A stretch of DNA of 23,415 nucleotides from a virus (Duplodnaviria; Heunggongvirae; Uroviricota; Caudoviricetes), in IMG/VR virus record IMGVR_UViG_2690316068_000003; one strand, written 5' to 3'. Positions 8,767 to 23,415 of the stretch are shown here, piece after piece. A program made the position numbers and the translations under genes. Under the pieces are notes generated by a model. The model saw only the letters and a program-made list of their open reading frames with translations, was not told the DNA's origin and ran no database searches. Each line of letters begins with the position of its first letter. Positions within the stretch are counted from its first letter, which is position 1.

Positions 8767-9211
8767 GTTTAAGCGTTTTGAAGACCGGCTGACCGGACTT
8801 ATTGAATCGCTGTCACCGTCATGGCGTCGGCGACTGAGCGCCGAACTGGCGAAACGTCTGCGGCAGAGTCAGCAGCGCCGGGTGATGGCACAGAAAGCCC
8901 CGGACGGCACACCCTACGCACCACGCCAGCAGCAGAGCGCCAGAAAAAAAACCGGTCGCGTTAAGCGAAAAATGTTTGCGAAACTTATCACCAGTCGTTT
9001 TTTGCATATCCGCGCCAGCCCTGAACAGGCAGCAATGGAGTTTTACGGCGGGAAGTCACCGAAAATCGCCAGTGTGCATCAGTTCGGTCTGTCGGAAGAA
9101 ACCCGGAAAGACGGTAAGAAAATTGATTATCCGGCGCGTCCTCTGCTCGGCTTTACCGGTGAGGATGTGCAGATGATTGAAGAGATTATCCTGGCTCACC
9201 TCGACCGTTAG
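8759..9211 (+). CDS. S: Tail completion / virion morphogenesis protein, P2 gpS-like, 150 aa
   Basis: ATG 8759 overlaps the R 3' end by 8 nt. P2 order and length. Confidence 0.88.
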   Translation: MNEFKRFEDRLTGLIESLSPSWRRRLSAELAKRLRQSQQRRVMAQKAPDGTPYAPRQQQSARKKTGRVKRKMFAKLITSRFLHIRASPEQAAMEFYGGKSPKIASVHQFGLSEETRKDGKKIDYPARPLLGFTGEDVQMIEEIILAHLDR

Positions 9212-14529: not shown

Positions 14530-14564
14530 GTTGTATAAGCTCTGGTGTGAGATTACATATCTAT

Positions 14565-14604
14565 GGCACAGAGTAAAGCCTAATCTGATAGGCCGCTCTG
14601 TGTC
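14565..14604 (+). other. Stem-loop downstream of G (9-bp stem with one G-U pair, about 22-nt loop with an internal GCCT/AGGC mini-stem)
   Basis: GGCACAGAG at 14565-14573 pairs with CTCTGTGTC at 14596-14604. There is no clean U-tract, so it is not a canonical intrinsic terminator. Confidence 0.3.
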
Positions 14605-14644
14605 TGGAGTAGATTTTAGTAAAGCATTATTTTATTAGTGCAAA

Positions 14645-14673
14645 TTCTAAACAATACATTTTATGTATATGAT
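14645..14673 (+). promoter_or_regulatory. Putative sigma70-type promoter for the cargo ORF
   Basis: TTCTAA at 14645-14650, a 17-bp spacer, then TATGAT at 14668-14673, in an AT-rich context about 80 nt upstream of ATG 14751. The -35 is weak and the call is by eye only. Confidence 0.2.
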
Positions 14674-14750
14674 ATCCTGCGGACTTTAATGACTTGGTTT
14701 AGGCTAACCAGATAACACTGAAGGAATATTTTTGATAATTAAGGTGCGGT

Positions 14751-15344
14751 ATGTTTACTAAGCGACGATTAAAAAATATTAATTGGGAGGCAAGTTCAGT
14801 GATTCTTGCTATGGTTCTCTTTGCTGGAAATATATTTTATACAAATCATCGTGATGATATAAGCATGGAGGCTGAGAGAGACAGTATCAGAACAATGTTT
14901 GCATATGAAATCGCTAATAACCATCGCGCTCTCACCTTTCTTGATAAAACGAGAAATATTGGCTTTGACGAAAATTCGGAGCATTTTGTTGGCGAGCCTT
15001 TTGCCATTAATGTCAAATCATTAGGAGGGCCTCGCTTACAGGTTGCATTAAACCAGACTGATAAAGTTTTTAAAGCCTACTTCAGTGAATTAAGTAAACT
15101 TGATAAAGAGGATGTTACTCTTCTTATGGACTATTACCATGAGCAAAGCATCCTGCTGGAGTGTGTAAAATCTACGTTACAGAAGATGAAAAGCAATAAT
15201 GATATTAAAGTTGATATTGATGGTTACTTATTAGAAGAACACTTCATGAATGAGTTTAATCTTTCTAATATTTTGCTTAAACGCTATAGCCATTTGTTGT
15301 CACAACACCTCAAAAAACCTGAAACAAAAGATTTACATAATTGA
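14751..15344 (+). CDS. Hypothetical membrane-anchored protein (197 aa), cargo gene in the G-FI accessory slot; candidate phage-exclusion/defence protein
   Basis: ATG 14751 with AAGGTG 4 nt upstream. Sampled 60-nt lines give 25-40% GC against about 60% in FI. Basic N-terminus (KRRLK) followed by one hydrophobic helix (SSVILAMVLFAGNIFY), then a charged, probably helical domain of about 165 aa with no motif I recognise. Confidence 0.7.
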   Translation: MFTKRRLKNINWEASSVILAMVLFAGNIFYTNHRDDISMEAERDSIRTMFAYEIANNHRALTFLDKTRNIGFDENSEHFVGEPFAINVKSLGGPRLQVALNQTDKVFKAYFSELSKLDKEDVTLLMDYYHEQSILLECVKSTLQKMKSNNDIKVDIDGYLLEEHFMNEFNLSNILLKRYSHLLSQHLKKPETKDLHN

Positions 15345-15550
15345 TGATCTGCTAATGGTTATTCATGGGATAACTATGTTTTATATGTAATCCAACTCAG
15401 ATGAATTATTGATTCTGGATAATAACCGCAGAGCGGCATATACCCTGACAGGCAAATGTCCGCTTCTTGCTCAAAGCAGACTGTCAGATTTGATAACTTT
15501 TGGGTTATGTAAATTGTCAGGCGGAAAATGAGTGAGTACAAATCAGGACA

Positions 15551-15577
15551 GGCGGGCGAATTGCCCGCCTTTTCTTT
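15551..15577 (+). terminator. Rho-independent terminator downstream of the cargo ORF
   Basis: GGCGGGC (15551-15557), loop GAATT, GCCCGCC (15563-15569), then TTTTCTTT. Confidence 0.6.
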
Positions 15578-15673
15578 ATCTGTTGTTTCATCCACTGACC
15601 AGCCAGGTCAAATAGCGTCTTATGCTCTGCACAACAGAAAATAGTTGCACCCATTAACCACGGAGTTAAACGG
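15578..15673 (+). promoter_or_regulatory. Region upstream of FI expected to carry the late promoter (P2 P_F equivalent)
   Basis: Positional inference from P2 operon structure. I could not identify a perfect TGT-N12-ACA box. GGAG at 15662-15665 serves as the FI RBS. Confidence 0.3.
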
Positions 15674-17879: not shown

Positions 17880-20319
17880 CAATGTAAAATTACAGGTATT
17901 GCTCAGGGCTGTTGACCAGGCATCCCGCCCGTTTAAATCCATCCGCACAGCGAGCAAATCGCTGTCGGGGGATATCCGGGAAACACAAAAATCACTGCGC
18001 GAGCTGAACGGTCAGGCATCCCGTATTGAGGGATTCCGCAAGACCAGTGCACAGCTCGCCGTGACTGGTCATGCACTTGAAAAGGCACGGCAGGAGGCCG
18101 AAGCCCTTGCCACACAGTTTAAAAACACCGAACGTCCGACACGTGCTCAGGCGAAGGTGCTGGAATCCGCGAAGCGTGCGGCAGAGGACTTACAGGCGAA
18201 ATATAACCGCCTGACGGATTCCGTTAAACGCCAGCAGCGGGAACTGGCCGTTGTGGGAATTAATACCCGCAATCTTGCACATGATGAGCAGGGACTGAAA
18301 AACCGTATCAGTGAAACCACCGCCCAGCTTAACCGGCAGCGTGACGCGCTGGCGCGTGTCAGTGCACAACAGGCAAAACTTAACGCAGTCAAACAGCGTT
18401 ATCAGGCCGGAAAGGAACTGGCTGGAAATATGGCCTCAGTTGGCGCTGCCGGTGTGGGGATTGCGGCGGCGGGAACGATGGCCGGTGTTAAGCTGTTGAT
18501 GCCCGGTTATGAGTTTGCGCAGAAAAACTCAGAATTGCAGGCCGTGCTAGGTGTGGCAAAAGACTCCGCCGAAATGGCCGCGCTCCGCAAGCAGGCGCGC
18601 CAGCTCGGCGATAATACCGCCGCCTCGGCGGATGATGCAGCCGGTGCGCAGATTATCATTGCGAAAGCCGGCGGGAATGTTGATGCCATTCAGGCGGCAA
18701 CGCCGGTCACGCTGAATATGGCGCTGGCGAACCGTCGCACGATGGAAGAAAACGCCGCCCTGTTGATGGGGATGAAATCCGCCTTTCAGCTTTCAAACGA
18801 TAAGGTCGCTCATATCGGGGATGTTCTCTCCATGACGATGAACAAAACCGCCGCCGATTTTGACGGCATGAGCGATGCGCTGACCTATGCCGCACCTGTG
18901 GCAAAAAATGCCGGTGTCAGCATTGAAGAAACCGCCGCAATGGTCGGGGCGCTGCATGATGCAAAAATTACCGGTTCAATGGCGGGGACGGGAAGCCGTG
19001 CCGTGTTAAGCCGCCTGCAGGCACCGACGGGAAAAGCATGGGATGCACTGAAAGAGCTTGGTGTGAAAACCTCAGACAGCAAGGGAAACACCCGACCAAT
19101 ATTTACCATTCTGAAAGAAATGCAGGCCAGTTTTGAGAAAAACCGGCTCGGTACTGCCCAGCAGGCTGAATACATGAAAACCATTTTCGGGGAGGAGGCC
19201 AGCTCAGCCGCCGCCGTGCTGATGACTGCCGCCTCAACCGGAAAGCTGGACAAACTGACCGCTGCGTTTAAAGCCTCAGACGGGAAGACCGCCGAGCTGG
19301 TAAATATCATGCAGGACAACCTCGGCGGTGACTTTAAGGAGTTTCAGTCCGCTTATGAGGCGGTGGGGACAGACCTGTTTGACCAGCAGGAAGGCGCACT
19401 GCGTAAACTCACTCAGACGGCCACAAAGTATGTGTTAAAACTCGACGGCTGGATCCAGAAAAACAAATCACTGGCGTCAACCATCGGCCTCATTGTCGGT
19501 GGCGCGCTGGCGCTTACTGGCATCATCGGTGCCATTGGTCTTGTAGCCTGGCCGGTTATCACCGGCATCAATGCCATTATCGCGGCAGCAGGCGCAATGG
19601 GAGCAATCTTCACGACGGTTGGCAGTGCTGTTATGACGGCCATCGGGGCGATTAGCTGGCCGGTTGTGGCCGTGGTGGCCGCCATTGTCGCCGGGGCGTT
19701 ACTTATCCGTAAATACTGGGAGCCTGTCAGCGCATTCTTTGGCGGTGTGGTTGAAGGGCTGAAAGCGGCATTTGCGCCGGTGGGGGAACTGTTCACGCCA
19801 CTTAAGCCGGTGTTTGACTGGCTGGGCGAAAAGTTACAGGCCGCGTGGCAGTGGTTTAAAAACCTGATTGCCCCGGTCAAAGCCACCCGGGACATCCTGA
19901 ACCGTTGCCGTGATACGGGCGTCATGTTCGGGCAGGCACTGGCTGACGCGTTGATGCTGCCGCTTAATGCGTTCAACAAACTGCGCAGCGGTATTGACTG
20001 GGTACTGGAAAAACTTGGTGTTATCAACAAAGAGTCAGGCACGCTTGACCAGACCGCCGCCAGAACTCATGCCGCCACGTATGGCACCGGTGGTTATATT
20101 CCGGCGACCAGCTCTTATGCAGGCTATCAGGCTTATCAGCCGGTTACGGCACCGGCTGGCCGCTCTTATGTGGACCAGAGTAAAAACGAATATCACATCA
20201 GTCTGACGGGCGGTACTGCGCCGGGGACTCAGCTCGACCGCCAGTTACAGGATGCGCTCGAAAAATACGAGCGGGATAAACGTGCGCGCGCCCGTGCCAG
20301 CATGATGCATGACGGTTAA
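17872..20319 (+). CDS. T: Tail tape measure protein, P2 gpT-like, 815 aa
   Basis: Largest tail gene, lying after the chaperone pair. Coiled-coil N-terminal half and a hydrophobic Gly/Ala-rich segment. P2 length. Confidence 0.92.
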   Translation: MSDNVKLQVLLRAVDQASRPFKSIRTASKSLSGDIRETQKSLRELNGQASRIEGFRKTSAQLAVTGHALEKARQEAEALATQFKNTERPTRAQAKVLESAKRAAEDLQAKYNRLTDSVKRQQRELAVVGINTRNLAHDEQGLKNRISETTAQLNRQRDALARVSAQQAKLNAVKQRYQAGKELAGNMASVGAAGVGIAAAGTMAGVKLLMPGYEFAQKNSELQAVLGVAKDSAEMAALRKQARQLGDNTAASADDAAGAQIIIAKAGGNVDAIQAATPVTLNMALANRRTMEENAALLMGMKSAFQLSNDKVAHIGDVLSMTMNKTAADFDGMSDALTYAAPVAKNAGVSIEETAAMVGALHDAKITGSMAGTGSRAVLSRLQAPTGKAWDALKELGVKTSDSKGNTRPIFTILKEMQASFEKNRLGTAQQAEYMKTIFGEEASSAAAVLMTAASTGKLDKLTAAFKASDGKTAELVNIMQDNLGGDFKEFQSAYEAVGTDLFDQQEGALRKLTQTATKYVLKLDGWIQKNKSLASTIGLIVGGALALTGIIGAIGLVAWPVITGINAIIAAAGAMGAIFTTVGSAVMTAIGAISWPVVAVVAAIVAGALLIRKYWEPVSAFFGGVVEGLKAAFAPVGELFTPLKPVFDWLGEKLQAAWQWFKNLIAPVKATRDILNRCRDTGVMFGQALADALMLPLNAFNKLRSGIDWVLEKLGVINKESGTLDQTAARTHAATYGTGGYIPATSSYAGYQAYQPVTAPAGRSYVDQSKNEYHISLTGGTAPGTQLDRQLQDALEKYERDKRARARASMMHDG

Positions 20320-20333
20320 GGAGGTGACGAAAA

Positions 20334-20813
20334 ATGATGCTTGCGTTAGGTATGTTTGTTTTTATGCGCCAGACGCTGCCACACCAGACCATGCAGCGTG
20401 AATCAGATTATCGCTGGCCGTCAAATTCCCGTATCGGTAAACGGGATGCCTTTCAGTTTCTCGGTGTTGGCGAGGAAAACATCACGCTTGCCGGCGTGCT
20501 TTATCCCGAACTGACCGGCGGAAAGCTGACGATGACCACGCTCAGGCTGATGGCAGAGGAAGGTCGGGCGTGGCCGTTACTGGATGGCACCGGCATGATT
20601 TACGGCATGTATGTCATCAGCAGGGTGAATGAAACAGGGAGTATTTTCTTTGCAGATGGCACACCCCGGAAAATTGATTTTACGCTGTCGCTCACCCGCG
20701 TTGATGAATCACTGGCCGCGCTTTATGGCGATATCGGTAAACAGGCGGAATCGCTCATCGGTAAGGCTGGCAGTATGGCGACTAAATTCACGGGTATGAC
20801 GGGGGCGGGATAA
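20334..20813 (+). CDS. U: Tail protein, P2 gpU-like, 159 aa
   Basis: P2 order and length. Stop overlaps the D start (TAATG). Confidence 0.9.
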   Translation: MMLALGMFVFMRQTLPHQTMQRESDYRWPSNSRIGKRDAFQFLGVGEENITLAGVLYPELTGGKLTMTTLRLMAEEGRAWPLLDGTGMIYGMYVISRVNETGSIFFADGTPRKIDFTLSLTRVDESLAALYGDIGKQAESLIGKAGSMATKFTGMTGAG

Positions 20814-21976
20814 TGCTGGATGCGCTGACATTTGATGCAGGCAGTACGCTGACGCCGGATTACATGCTGATGCTCGACAGCAGGGATATTACCGGCAATA
20901 TCAGTGACCGTCTGATGAGCATGACCCTGACGGATAACCGGGGCTTTGAGGCTGACCAGCTTGATATTGAACTGAACGATGCCGACGGGCAGGTCGGGCT
21001 GCCGGTTCGTGGCGCTGTCCTGACGGTGTATATCGGCTGGAAAGGTTTTGCCCTGGTATGCAAAGGGAAATTCACCGTTGATGAGGTTGAACACCGGGGC
21101 GCACCGGATGTGGTTACCATCCGCGCCCGGAGTGCAGATTTCCGCGGGACGCTCAATTCCCGCCGTGAAGGTTCCTGGCATGACACCACGCTCGGTGCGA
21201 TTGTTGAGGCGATAGCCTCCCGTAACAGGCTGGAAGCCAGTGTCGCTCCGTCACTGGCCGGAATTAAAATCCCGCACATCGACCAGTCGCAGGAGTCTGA
21301 TGCGAAATTCCTGACCCGTCTTGCAGAACGCAACGGCGGTGAGGTGTCGGTAAAAATGGGAAAACTGTTGTTTCTCAAAGCGGGGCAGGGGGTGACGGCC
21401 AGCGGTAAAAAAATCCCGCAGGTCACCATCACCCGCAGCGACGGCGACCGTCATCATTTTGCGATTGCTGACCGTGGAGCCTATACCGGCGTTACGGCAA
21501 AGTGGTTACACACCAAAGACCCGAAGCCACAAAAGCAGAAGGTAAAACTGAAACGCAAAAAGAAAGAAAAACACCTGCGCGCACTGGAGCACCCGAAAGC
21601 AAAACCGGTCACGCAGAAGAAAGCGCCAAAAGTACCGGAAGCGCGCGAAGGTGAATACATGGCCGGTGAGGCTGACAACGTTTTTGCACTGACCACGGTA
21701 TATGCCACGAAAGCACAGGCCATGCGCGCCGCTCAGGCGAAGTGGGATAAACTGCAACGGGGTGTAGCGGAGTTCTCCATCAGTCTGGCTACTGGTCGGG
21801 CAGATATTTACACGGAAACGCCGGTCAAAGTGTCAGGCTTTAAGCGCGTCATAGACGAGCAGGACTGGACAATCACTAAGGTGACACATTTTCTGAATAA
21901 TAGCGGCTTCACGACGTCCTTGGAGCTTGAGGTCAGGCTTTCTGATGTGGAGTACGAAACCGAAGATGATGAGTGA
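20813..21976 (+). CDS. D: Tail protein / late control protein, P2 gpD-like, 387 aa
   Basis: P2 order and length. Contains a lysine-rich low-complexity linker. Confidence 0.92.
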   Translation: MLDALTFDAGSTLTPDYMLMLDSRDITGNISDRLMSMTLTDNRGFEADQLDIELNDADGQVGLPVRGAVLTVYIGWKGFALVCKGKFTVDEVEHRGAPDVVTIRARSADFRGTLNSRREGSWHDTTLGAIVEAIASRNRLEASVAPSLAGIKIPHIDQSQESDAKFLTRLAERNGGEVSVKMGKLLFLKAGQGVTASGKKIPQVTITRSDGDRHHFAIADRGAYTGVTAKWLHTKDPKPQKQKVKLKRKKKEKHLRALEHPKAKPVTQKKAPKVPEAREGEYMAGEADNVFALTTVYATKAQAMRAAQAKWDKLQRGVAEFSISLATGRADIYTETPVKVSGFKRVIDEQDWTITKVTHFLNNSGFTTSLELEVRLSDVEYETEDDE

Positions 21977-21994
21977 TGTTTTTGTTTTATCTGT

Positions 21995-22023
21995 TTGTTT
22001 TATAAGAATAAATTAACTAAAAT
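21995..22023 (+). promoter_or_regulatory. Putative sigma70 promoter of ogr
   Basis: TTGTTT at 21995-22000, a 17-bp spacer, then TAAAAT at 22018-22023. RBS GAAGAGG at 22042-22049 precedes ATG 22058. Called by eye. Confidence 0.3.
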
Positions 22024-22057
22024 GGCACCATCAACAAAACCGGAAGAGGTGCTCGCG

Positions 22058-22276
22058 ATGTTTCATTGTCCTTTATGCCAGCATGCCGCACATGCGCGTA
22101 CAAGTCGCTATATCACTGACACGACAAAAGAGCGTTATCACCAGTGCCAGAACGTGAATTGCAGCGCCACGTTCATCACTTATGAGTCGGTACAGCGATA
22201 CATCGTGAAGCCGGGAGAAGTCCACGCCGTAAGGCCGCACCCGTTGCCGTCAGGGCAGCAAATTATGTGGATGTGA
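22058..22276 (+). CDS. ogr: Late-gene transcriptional activator Ogr (Cys4 zinc-finger protein), 72 aa
   Basis: MFHCPLCQHAAHARTSRYITDTTKERYHQCQNVNCSATF... matches P2 Ogr as I recall it, with CxxC...CxxxxC zinc ligands. The track ORF is extended upstream; the true start is ATG 22058. Confidence 0.93.
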   Translation: MFHCPLCQHAAHARTSRYITDTTKERYHQCQNVNCSATFITYESVQRYIVKPGEVHAVRPHPLPSGQQIMWM

Positions 22277-22286
22277 TCACAAAAAT

Positions 22287-22314
22287 AGCCCCTCAGTTGA
22301 GGGGCTTTATTTAT
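22287..22314 (+). terminator. Rho-independent terminator after ogr
   Basis: AGCCCCTC (22287-22294), loop AGTT, GAGGGGCT (22299-22306), then TTATTTAT. Confidence 0.65.
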
Positions 22315-22319
22315 GGTCG

Positions 22320-22338
22320 ATGTGGACGCTATGTGGAC
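22320..22338 (+). repeat. Two direct repeats ATGTGGAC spaced 11 bp apart; candidate integrase arm-type binding sites of the att arm
   Basis: ATGTGGAC at 22320-22327 and 22331-22338, the second extending to TGTGGACA. This resembles the P2 Int arm-site consensus as I recall it (TGTGGACA). Lies between ogr and the chromosomal junction, where P2 attP sits. Confidence 0.4.
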
Positions 22339-22344
22339 AGTGCT

Positions 22345-22366
22345 TGATATAAATCCATTTATATCA
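22345..22366. repeat. Perfect 10-bp inverted repeat with a 2-bp spacer (22-bp AT-rich palindrome)
   Basis: TGATATAAAT-CC-ATTTATATCA. The palindrome is read directly from the sequence; its function (core-type Int, Cox or IHF-type site) is inferred. Confidence 0.5.
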
Positions 22367-22404
22367 TCAGGTTAGGTGCTTTTTTATGACACCATCCCTG
22401 TCTT

Positions 22405-22431
22405 CCCCCACATGATGTGGGGGTTTTTTTT
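22405..22431 (+). terminator. Strong rho-independent terminator, probably the cpxP/CpxQ 3' terminator at the prophage-chromosome junction
   Basis: CCCCCACAT (22405-22413), G, ATGTGGGGG (22415-22423), then eight T. Lies 82 bp upstream of fieF, matching my recollection of the native cpxP-fieF spacing. Confidence 0.7.
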
Positions 22432-22512
22432 ATCCTCAATTTGCCTGCTGCTTAATGCATTGCAGATGATTTGCTTCCGTTATACTACCGTCAGTTGATA
22501 GCGGGAGTATTT

Positions 22513-23415
22513 ATGAATCAATCTTATGGACGGCTGGTCAGTCGGGCGGCGATTGCTGCGACGGCGATGGCTTCGCTGCTATTGCTGATTAAAATTTTTG
22601 CATGGTGGTATACCGGGTCGGTGAGTATTCTCGCCGCGCTGGTGGATTCGCTGGTGGATATCGGCGCGTCGTTGACGAATTTACTGGTGGTGCGATATTC
22701 CCTGCAACCTGCCGACGATAATCACTCGTTTGGTCACGGTAAAGCTGAGTCCCTCGCGGCGCTGGCGCAAAGTATGTTTATCTCCGGTTCGGCACTATTC
22801 CTGTTTTTGACGGGTATTCAACATCTGGTATCTCCAACACCGATGACAGATCCAGGCGTCGGGGTTATCGTGACAATTGTGGCGCTAATTTGTACGATTA
22901 TCCTTGTCTCGTTTCAGCGTTGGGTGGTGCGCCGGACGCAAAGCCAGGCGGTGCGGGCTGATATGCTACATTACCAGTCTGATGTTATGATGAACGGCGC
23001 AATTCTGCTGGCGCTGGGGTTGTCCTGGTACGGCTGGCATCGCGCCGATGCTCTGTTTGCATTGGGGATCGGCATCTATATTTTATATAGCGCGTTACGC
23101 ATGGGATATGAGGCGGTACAGTCATTACTGGATCGCGCATTGCCTGATGAGGAACGGCAAGAAATTATTGATATCGTGACTTCCTGGCCGGGTGTTAGCG
23201 GCGCTCACGATCTTCGCACGCGGCAGTCAGGGCCGACCCGCTTTATTCAGATTCATTTGGAAATGGAAGACTCTCTGCCTTTGGTTCAGGCACATATGGT
23301 GGCGGATCAGGTAGAGCAGGCTATTTTACGGCGTTTTCCGGGATCGGATGTGATTATCCATCAGGACCCCTGTTCCGTCGTACCCAGGGAGGGTAAACGG
23401 TCTATGCTTTCATAA
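22513..23415 (+). CDS. fieF: Cation-diffusion-facilitator family Fe(II)/Zn(II) efflux transporter FieF (YiiP), 300 aa, chromosomal
   Basis: [54 protein letters not shown]... matches E. coli FieF as recalled. The track ORF begins at an upstream TTG; the true start is ATG 22513. Typical chromosomal composition. Confidence 0.93.

Follow-up and report, generated by a model that had tools for sequence, protein, structure and literature searches.

What are the two short direct repeats that lie just beyond ogr, near the right end of a 23,415-nt stretch of viral DNA (the window)? The open reading frames and annotated genomes identify the window as the late region of a P2-like prophage, running from the portal and terminase genes at the left end through the tail genes and D to ogr (Table 1). 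The last phage gene before the attachment site is ogr, the late-gene activator, and its counterpart is annotated ogrK/ogr in NZ_CP148323 and WPhi. It is followed by an intrinsic terminator with a predicted RNA fold of -16.7 kcal/mol (z = -3.7), whose T-tract runs to 22314. This terminator is homologous to the P2 terminator annotated at 24265-24288.

The repeat pair and its surroundings

The closest complete genome is that of E. coli Z1323HEC0477 (NZ_CP148323), with 99.3% identity over the window (164 mismatches in 23,415 bp) and 100% identity over positions 22277-22700, the att region included. The prophage in this genome sits between cpxP and fieF, and its int gene adjoins cpxP. The host part of the window (22435-23415) is matched in all 5426 complete E. 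coli genomes. A prophage at cpxP-fieF, Wphi1, is listed in the E. coli W genome paper (PMC3032704), and the integration site of WPhi has been stated as already identified (Nilsson et al. 2011, PMC3448106). Judged from its sequence, the window ends in the attR (P-O-B') of a WPhi-type P2-family prophage in the cpxP-fieF spacer, with the elements in the order ogr terminator, two Int arm sites, IHF-like site, 47-bp core and host fieF.

Two segments elsewhere in the window also deserve mention. Positions 1-53 lie past the end of Q, the portal gene, and bear no relation to the NZ_CP148323 prophage, which is otherwise 99.9% identical; the best full-length match comes from a different strain (97.3%). 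They mark the edge of a variable region to the left of Q. A low-GC island at 14550-15600 (32-39%, against about 55% for the backbone) lies between the tail-fibre assembly and tail sheath genes, at the position of Z/fun in P2. It contains an open reading frame for a 197-aa protein with a hydrophobic N-terminus. This protein has no Pfam or PADLOC match, and the gene is possibly a moron or defence gene.

Table 1. Coordinates of the features discussed. Positions are those of the window unless another sequence is named.
Feature	Position	Strand	Sequence	Basis or remark
Low-GC island ORF, 197-aa protein	14751-15344	+		hydrophobic N-terminus
D	20813-21976			P2-like late region
ogr, late-gene activator	22058-22276	+		Pfam Ogr_Delta, E=1.1e-21
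ogr intrinsic terminator	22287-22314	+	stem 22287-22306, then TTATTTAT	terminator scan
Invariant block, 23 bp, outer (left) boundary of conserved att module	22318-22340	.	CGATGTGGACGCTATGTGGACAG	
Probable Int arm-type site 1, P arm	22321-22328	+	TGTGGACG	consensus match, alignment to first half of P2 Int P arm, invariance
Probable Int arm-type site 2, P arm, 11 bp after site 1	22332-22339	+	TGTGGACA	as for site 1
Probable IHF site	22345-22374	+	A/T-rich tract, then TATCATCAGGTTA (22362-22374)	P2 register
Sub-threshold match to RF02628 Hrs1	22387-22431; attL extract L005 9013-9085	-		
Att core, 47 bp, common core of attR	22388-22434	.	GACACCATCCCTGTCTTCCCCCACATGATGTGGGGGTTTTTTTTATC	junction mapping
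Candidate strand-exchange (overlap) region	22392-22398	.	CCATCCC	inferred
Second cpxP/CpxQ terminator copy, within core	22405-22431	+	CCCCCACAT-G-ATGTGGGGG + T8	terminator scan, fold
Host DNA, fieF upstream region and fieF (ATG at 22514)	22435-23415	+		annotated fieF
P2 (NC_001895) Int 'P arm'	24293-24320		TCGATGTGGTCAATGTGTGGACGTGACC	
P2 (NC_001895) IHF	24324-24357			
P2 (NC_001895) Int core	24356-24383			
P2 (NC_001895) Cox	24399-24472			
P2 (NC_001895) Int 'P' arm'	24470-24496		CTGTGGACACTGTGTGGACACTCTCGG	
Int, arm-binding	residues 1-45			78% identity to P2 Int (35/45; 33/40 over first 40)
Int, core-binding	residues 56-170			37% identity to P2 Int
Int, catalytic	residues 171-326			55% identity to P2 Int

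Read directly, the repeat region is ...GGTCG ATGTGGAC GCT ATGTGGACA GTG.... The two copies of ATGTGGAC occupy 22320-22327 and 22331-22338, the 9-mer ATGTGGACA spans 22331-22339, and the TGTGG starts of the two copies are 11 bp apart. This reading and the 11-bp register confirm the first-pass annotation, which had described two direct repeats at helical-turn spacing beside ogr. It had placed them at 22320-22338; the start is correct and the end is one base short, as ATGTGGACA reaches 22339. Its distance of 6 bp after the ogr terminator is essentially right, with the first repeat starting 5 nt past the T-tract.

The pair is the sole exact ATGTGGAC pair at an 11-bp offset in the window, and one more single exact copy is found at 20168. 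As an anonymous repeat it is unremarkable: an exact 8-mer repeat at offset 11 was seen in 28% of 1000 dinucleotide-preserving shuffles of the window, and single matches to TGTGGACA, exact or with one mismatch, occur in the window at chance level. As a match to the pre-specified motif TGTGGAC-N4-TGTGGAC it is far beyond chance, with an expectation of about 2e-4 per window and a single occurrence among 1000 shuffles. A possible third arm site, ATGTGGAT at 22265-22272 (the 3' end of ogr, 55 bp upstream), was rejected, being absent in P2 and of a kind, the one-mismatch match, that is found at chance frequency.

Arm sites, IHF region and core

The repeats are very probably the tandem arm-type sites of the P arm in a WPhi-type attR, to which the prophage's heterobivalent tyrosine integrase binds through its N-terminal domain. 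P2-type arm repeats have the consensus tgTGGaCa and are found as direct repeats that flank the core (Nilsson et al. 2011, PMC3448106). Both copies in the window match the TGTGGAC part of this consensus, and the second copy matches all eight bases. In the P2 record (NC_001895), the stretch that immediately follows the ogr terminator (24293-24320) is annotated 'protein_bind Int, P arm', and the window block TCGATGTGGACGCTATGTGGACAGTGCT is in register with this feature. The identity between the window and P2 is 92.9% over positions 21990-22366, covering ogr, the terminator and the P arm and reaching into the IHF region; the homology ends before the core. Support for Int binding in P2 is drawn here from the GenBank protein_bind features. 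Physical binding of Int at the P2 arm sites was reportedly described by Yu and Haggard-Ljungquist in 1993.

The matching pair on the int-proximal arm reads GTGTGGACACTATGTGGACAC and has the same strand. This pair is present in the attP of WPhi (extract L001, 2527-2547), at the attL of the NZ_CP148323 prophage (extract L005, 9171-9191) and at the attL of two other lysogens. In WPhi attP it is located 196 bp downstream of the first pair and 15 bp past the stop codon of int, and the P' pair at the attL of the NZ_CP148323 prophage is likewise 15 bp past the int stop codon.

The consensus, the P2 annotation and the presence of the motif on both arms thereby support what the first-pass annotation had proposed, namely probable integrase arm sites that mark the att arm. 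The place where it expected P2 to carry attP is the spot of the annotated Int P arm in NC_001895, and the P2 Int arm consensus to which it had matched the repeats agrees with the published one. It had suggested looking for the same repeats at the attL end, where the int-proximal arm has the matching pair (in WPhi attP and NZ_CP148323 attL), and aligning the site with P2 and WPhi, which gives the identity to P2 noted above and 98.2% to WPhi from ogr to the core. The combination of a P2-type arm with a different core also holds, since the P2 core has no match in the window at up to three mismatches. What had gone unrecognised is that this arrangement is the characterised att site of WPhi at cpxP-fieF.

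The probable IHF site lies between the arm sites and the core. TATCATCAGGTTA agrees with the IHF consensus, WATCAANNNNTTR, at eight of the nine specified positions, and the same is true of TTTCAATTTATTG in P2. Moreover, AAATCC-N5-TATCATCAGGTTA is in register with AAATCC-N5-TTTCAATTTATTG inside the annotated IHF site of P2. A scan of the window with the IHF consensus found 16 matches, with 14 expected. As the consensus match is at chance level, the assignment of the IHF site rests on position and homology.

The limits of the core were obtained by junction mapping. Most of the 5426 E. coli genomes are without a prophage at cpxP-fieF, and these match the window only from 22388 on, whereas WPhi and about 40 related phage records match it only up to 22434. 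An exact copy of the intervening 47 bp is found beside cpxP at the attL of the NZ_CP148323 prophage, and the same 47 bp are present in WPhi attP. The empty site of K-12 (attB) differs from them by one base, at a terminator-loop position. The 47 bp shared by attL, attR and WPhi attP are therefore the common core, and the window holds attR.

The terminator copy within the core is identical to the terminator of the cpxP 3'UTR at attL. Its loop contains an A/C polymorphism at 22415, with A in all six of the free-phage attP sites examined and C in K-12. Some empty sites also carry A at the equivalent position. In the lysogen CFS3273, attL has the phage allele (A) and attR has the host allele (C) at this position, a pattern expected of strand exchange somewhere leftward of 22415. 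An exchange centred on the hairpin loop of the terminator was dropped on this allele pattern. The candidate overlap region, CCATCCC, is flanked by an inverted repeat that reads GACA/TGTC, or AGACA/TGTCT in attB. With its 7-bp spacer, (A/T)GACA-CCATCCC-TGTCT in the left part of the core would plausibly represent the arrangement of core-type sites around the overlap.

Integrase, conservation and alternative readings

The int gene is located outside the window, and the Int analysed here is that of the 99.3%-identical prophage in NZ_CP148323. This protein begins MSIKKLDDGRYEVDIR... and is identical to WPhi Int at 325 of 326 residues. Compared with P2 Int, its arm-binding region is the most conserved and its core-binding region the least (Table 1). 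The residues Tyr11, Asp14 and Arg16 (Y11/D14/R16) are retained, as in P2 Int, and the Y, D and R positions have been proposed as discriminators of P2-type arms (PMC3448106). The pattern fits the published picture of a conserved arm-binding domain and a swapped core-binding domain.

A comparison of attP sites took in P2, WPhi, Enterobacter phage ENT4, the Salmonella phages SI7 and SEN5, and eight contigs from IMG/VR. At least five unrelated cores occur among these sites, two of which are tRNA-like. The 11-bp register is kept in all 22 arm pairs (one per arm, from 11 attP sites), with two sites per arm in a single orientation, and nrTGTGGAC(a/g)n is the consensus that 26 distinct 11-mers yield. 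A strict scan of IMG/VR for the four-site pattern gave eight loci, which show the diversity of cores and are too few for statistics. Among the 5426 complete E. coli genomes, 784 (about 14%) have the WPhi-type P arm, nearly all of them in one copy. This number agrees with the 790 genomes in which the cpxP-fieF site is occupied.

Nine E. coli and WPhi sequences were aligned, in which the arm is preceded by one of three unrelated left flanks, either ogr followed by its terminator or a cargo gene, of which there are two unrelated kinds, each with a terminator of its own. The homology starts at 22318 every time. The block CGATGTGGACGCTATGTGGACAG is invariant in all nine sequences, and the next eight bases (22341-22348) are polymorphic. 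A conserved recombination module thus has the repeats as its outer edge.

In some lysogens a cargo gene is located between the arm sites and ogr (confirmed in CFS3273, extract L030, 261-902), or it replaces ogr beside the arm. Examples (extracts L023-L027 and L030, aligned to 22277-22318) include a 213-aa hypothetical protein, WP_000416606.1, and other hypothetical proteins on the opposite strand. The homology resumes exactly at the arm sites, which makes the spacer between ogr and attP a cargo hotspot. A heavily degraded prophage occupies the same site in E. coli F070 (NZ_AP023237); its genes for the portal, replication endonuclease, baseplate V and sheath are truncated, and it contains foreign inserts. 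Its arm repeats and core are intact at both ends.

The strong divergence of the core-binding domain (37% identity) could mean that the arm specificity of the WPhi-type Int changed along with its core specificity, leaving the repeats as a relic P2-type arm that this Int does not use. Arm motifs can drift, as SEN5, which shares this core, has the variant TGTAGAC. We nevertheless consider a relic very improbable: 33 of the first 40 residues of Int are identical to P2 Int, perfect TGTGGAC pairs are present on both arms in all WPhi-type sequences, and the block shows no variation in the diverged lysogens that were sampled among the 784 arm-carrying genomes.

Directionality factors and P2-type C repressors are described as binding direct repeats about one turn apart (PMC7498355, PMC2995052), and the repeats could in principle bind Cox or the C immunity repressor and regulate ogr or att instead of docking Int. 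In P2, however, the Cox-protected region is located across the core, and the block homologous to that in the window is annotated as bound by Int. P2 and WPhi differ in their immunity and Cox types but have the same motif, and it tracks the conserved N-terminal domain of Int rather than the divergent C and Cox proteins. There is very little chance that a Cox or C operator is the correct reading. Finally, a functionless chance duplication in the intergenic spacer, with which the frequency of anonymous 8-mer repeats in shuffled windows and the chance-level single copies would be compatible, is effectively refuted by the comparative data, as the motif-specific expectation is so low, the pair is found again on the other arm and, regardless of the core, in all the P2-type attP sites examined, and the block stays invariant amid varying neighbours with an exact start of homology in three flank contexts.

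With the repeats taken as docking sites for Int on the P arm, homology to P2 suggests how the site may work. The two TGTGGAC sites, spaced by one helical turn, would be high-affinity docking places for Int. IHF would bend the A/T-rich spacer (about 22345-22374), and the bend would bring the low-affinity core-type sites of the 47-bp core, at a distance of 50-70 bp, within reach of the same Int molecules. The int-proximal pair of the P' arm, in attL and beyond the window, would complete the excisive complex together with Cox. Binding by this Int, binding of IHF and the position of strand exchange are what we infer.

Overlap of the core with the CpxQ gene

CpxQ is a 58-nt Hfq-dependent sRNA that is cut by RNase E from the cpxP 3'UTR, ends at the terminator and has its seed at the 5' end (PMC9438474, PMC6755755). 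At attL, cpxP ends 23 bp before the core, and its terminator is located inside the core. Counting 58 nt back from the U-tract puts CpxQ at 9028-9085 of extract L005, and the att core covers its nucleotides 15-58. Integration swaps most of the CpxQ gene for a phage-supplied copy at attL, where an intact CpxQ is regenerated. What is left at attR (22388-22431) is a 5'-truncated CpxQ, with the terminator and U-tail intact, behind the ogr terminator.

No sigma-70-like promoter was found in the region 21950-22560, and there is thus no evidence of an autonomous transcript from the CpxQ remnant at attR. Read-through from ogr or the late operon might still yield a chimeric, Hfq-binding CpxQ-like RNA without the 5' seed, although we regard this as unlikely. 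If it does occur, the regulation of envelope stress could be perturbed by this RNA in the approximately 14% of E. coli that carry such prophages.

Other genera of Peduoviridae share the core with the CpxQ terminator. The match of SI7 (Irrigatiovirus) is 100% over 45 bp, and that of SEN5 (Senquatrovirus) is looser. That this core is common to phages of several genera could be accounted for by the extreme conservation of CpxQ. Both arms of SEN5 have TGTAGAC, a variant of the repeat, and this suggests that its arm repeats co-vary with the N-terminal domain of its Int.

No literature linking the att core to CpxQ was found in the searchable texts, and the one paper found there that names both CpxQ and integrase seems unrelated to phage integration. 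A search of Rfam gave nothing above the gathering threshold around the site. On the minus strand of the CpxQ region, a full-length alignment was obtained below the threshold to RF02628 Hrs1 ('Hfq-regulated sRNA 1'), at 44.5 bits with a gathering score of 56.4. The RF02628 model opens with A7 followed by a hairpin, which is the look of a reverse-complemented terminator, and this family may be a CpxQ homologue modelled on the wrong strand. The literature search found no paper that links Hrs1 and CpxQ.

Relation to known attachment systems

For annotation, the repeats fix the right end of the prophage precisely: the att module has its outer boundary at 22318, and the core spans 22388-22434. They also identify the element as WPhi-type, a lineage present at cpxP-fieF in about one-seventh of complete E. 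coli genomes. A known principle is illustrated again, in which the P2-like arm module (the N-terminal domain of Int and the TGTGGAC repeats) is kept and the core-binding domain and the core are swapped, retargeting integration. Only two angles are mildly new, the overlap of the core with the CpxQ sRNA gene and the natural SNP by which strand exchange is assigned to the core's left half.

The attP of phage lambda, with arm sites P1, P2 and P'1-P'3, follows the same logic, in which IHF-induced bends allow a heterobivalent tyrosine integrase to span the distance from high-affinity arm sites to core sites of low affinity. Lambda differs in having another motif, five arm sites, several IHF sites, and Xis and Fis. 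P2-type sites have two arm sites per arm and one IHF site, and Cox is the directionality factor.

The 186-type arm sites likewise come as tandem direct repeats, and both arms of a P2-like phage attP have them (PMC3448106). They differ in their consensus (tgccGCCActt), in the N-terminal signature of Int, which is W/E/Y rather than Y/D/R, and in their targets, which are usually tRNA genes (PMC3448106).

The P arm of P2 resembles that of the window in its location after the ogr terminator, its 11-bp register, its strand, its two sites per arm and its homologous flanks, including AAATCC and the IHF region. In contrast to the window, its first site is TGTGGTC, and the homology ends inside the IHF region (at about 22366). 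The P2 core comprises 27 bp, belongs to a different host site and is absent from the window. The arm-to-arm distance is 174 bp in P2, compared to 196 bp in the WPhi type.

The closest likeness is to the attP of WPhi (Peduovirus Wphi, AY135739), which is 98.2% identical from ogr to the core. The arm repeats and the 47-bp core are identical to those in the window, and the P' pair and the host site at cpxP-fieF are the same. The differences are a small number of spacer SNPs (C versus G at 22343 and A versus G at 22386) and the nature of the site, which is attR in the window and attP in WPhi. The exact arrangement is that of the characterised att site of WPhi at cpxP-fieF, and the combination of arm and core is therefore not new. 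The repeats very probably correspond to the already characterised P-arm Int-binding site of the WPhi-type att, which is textbook biology and not a discovery.
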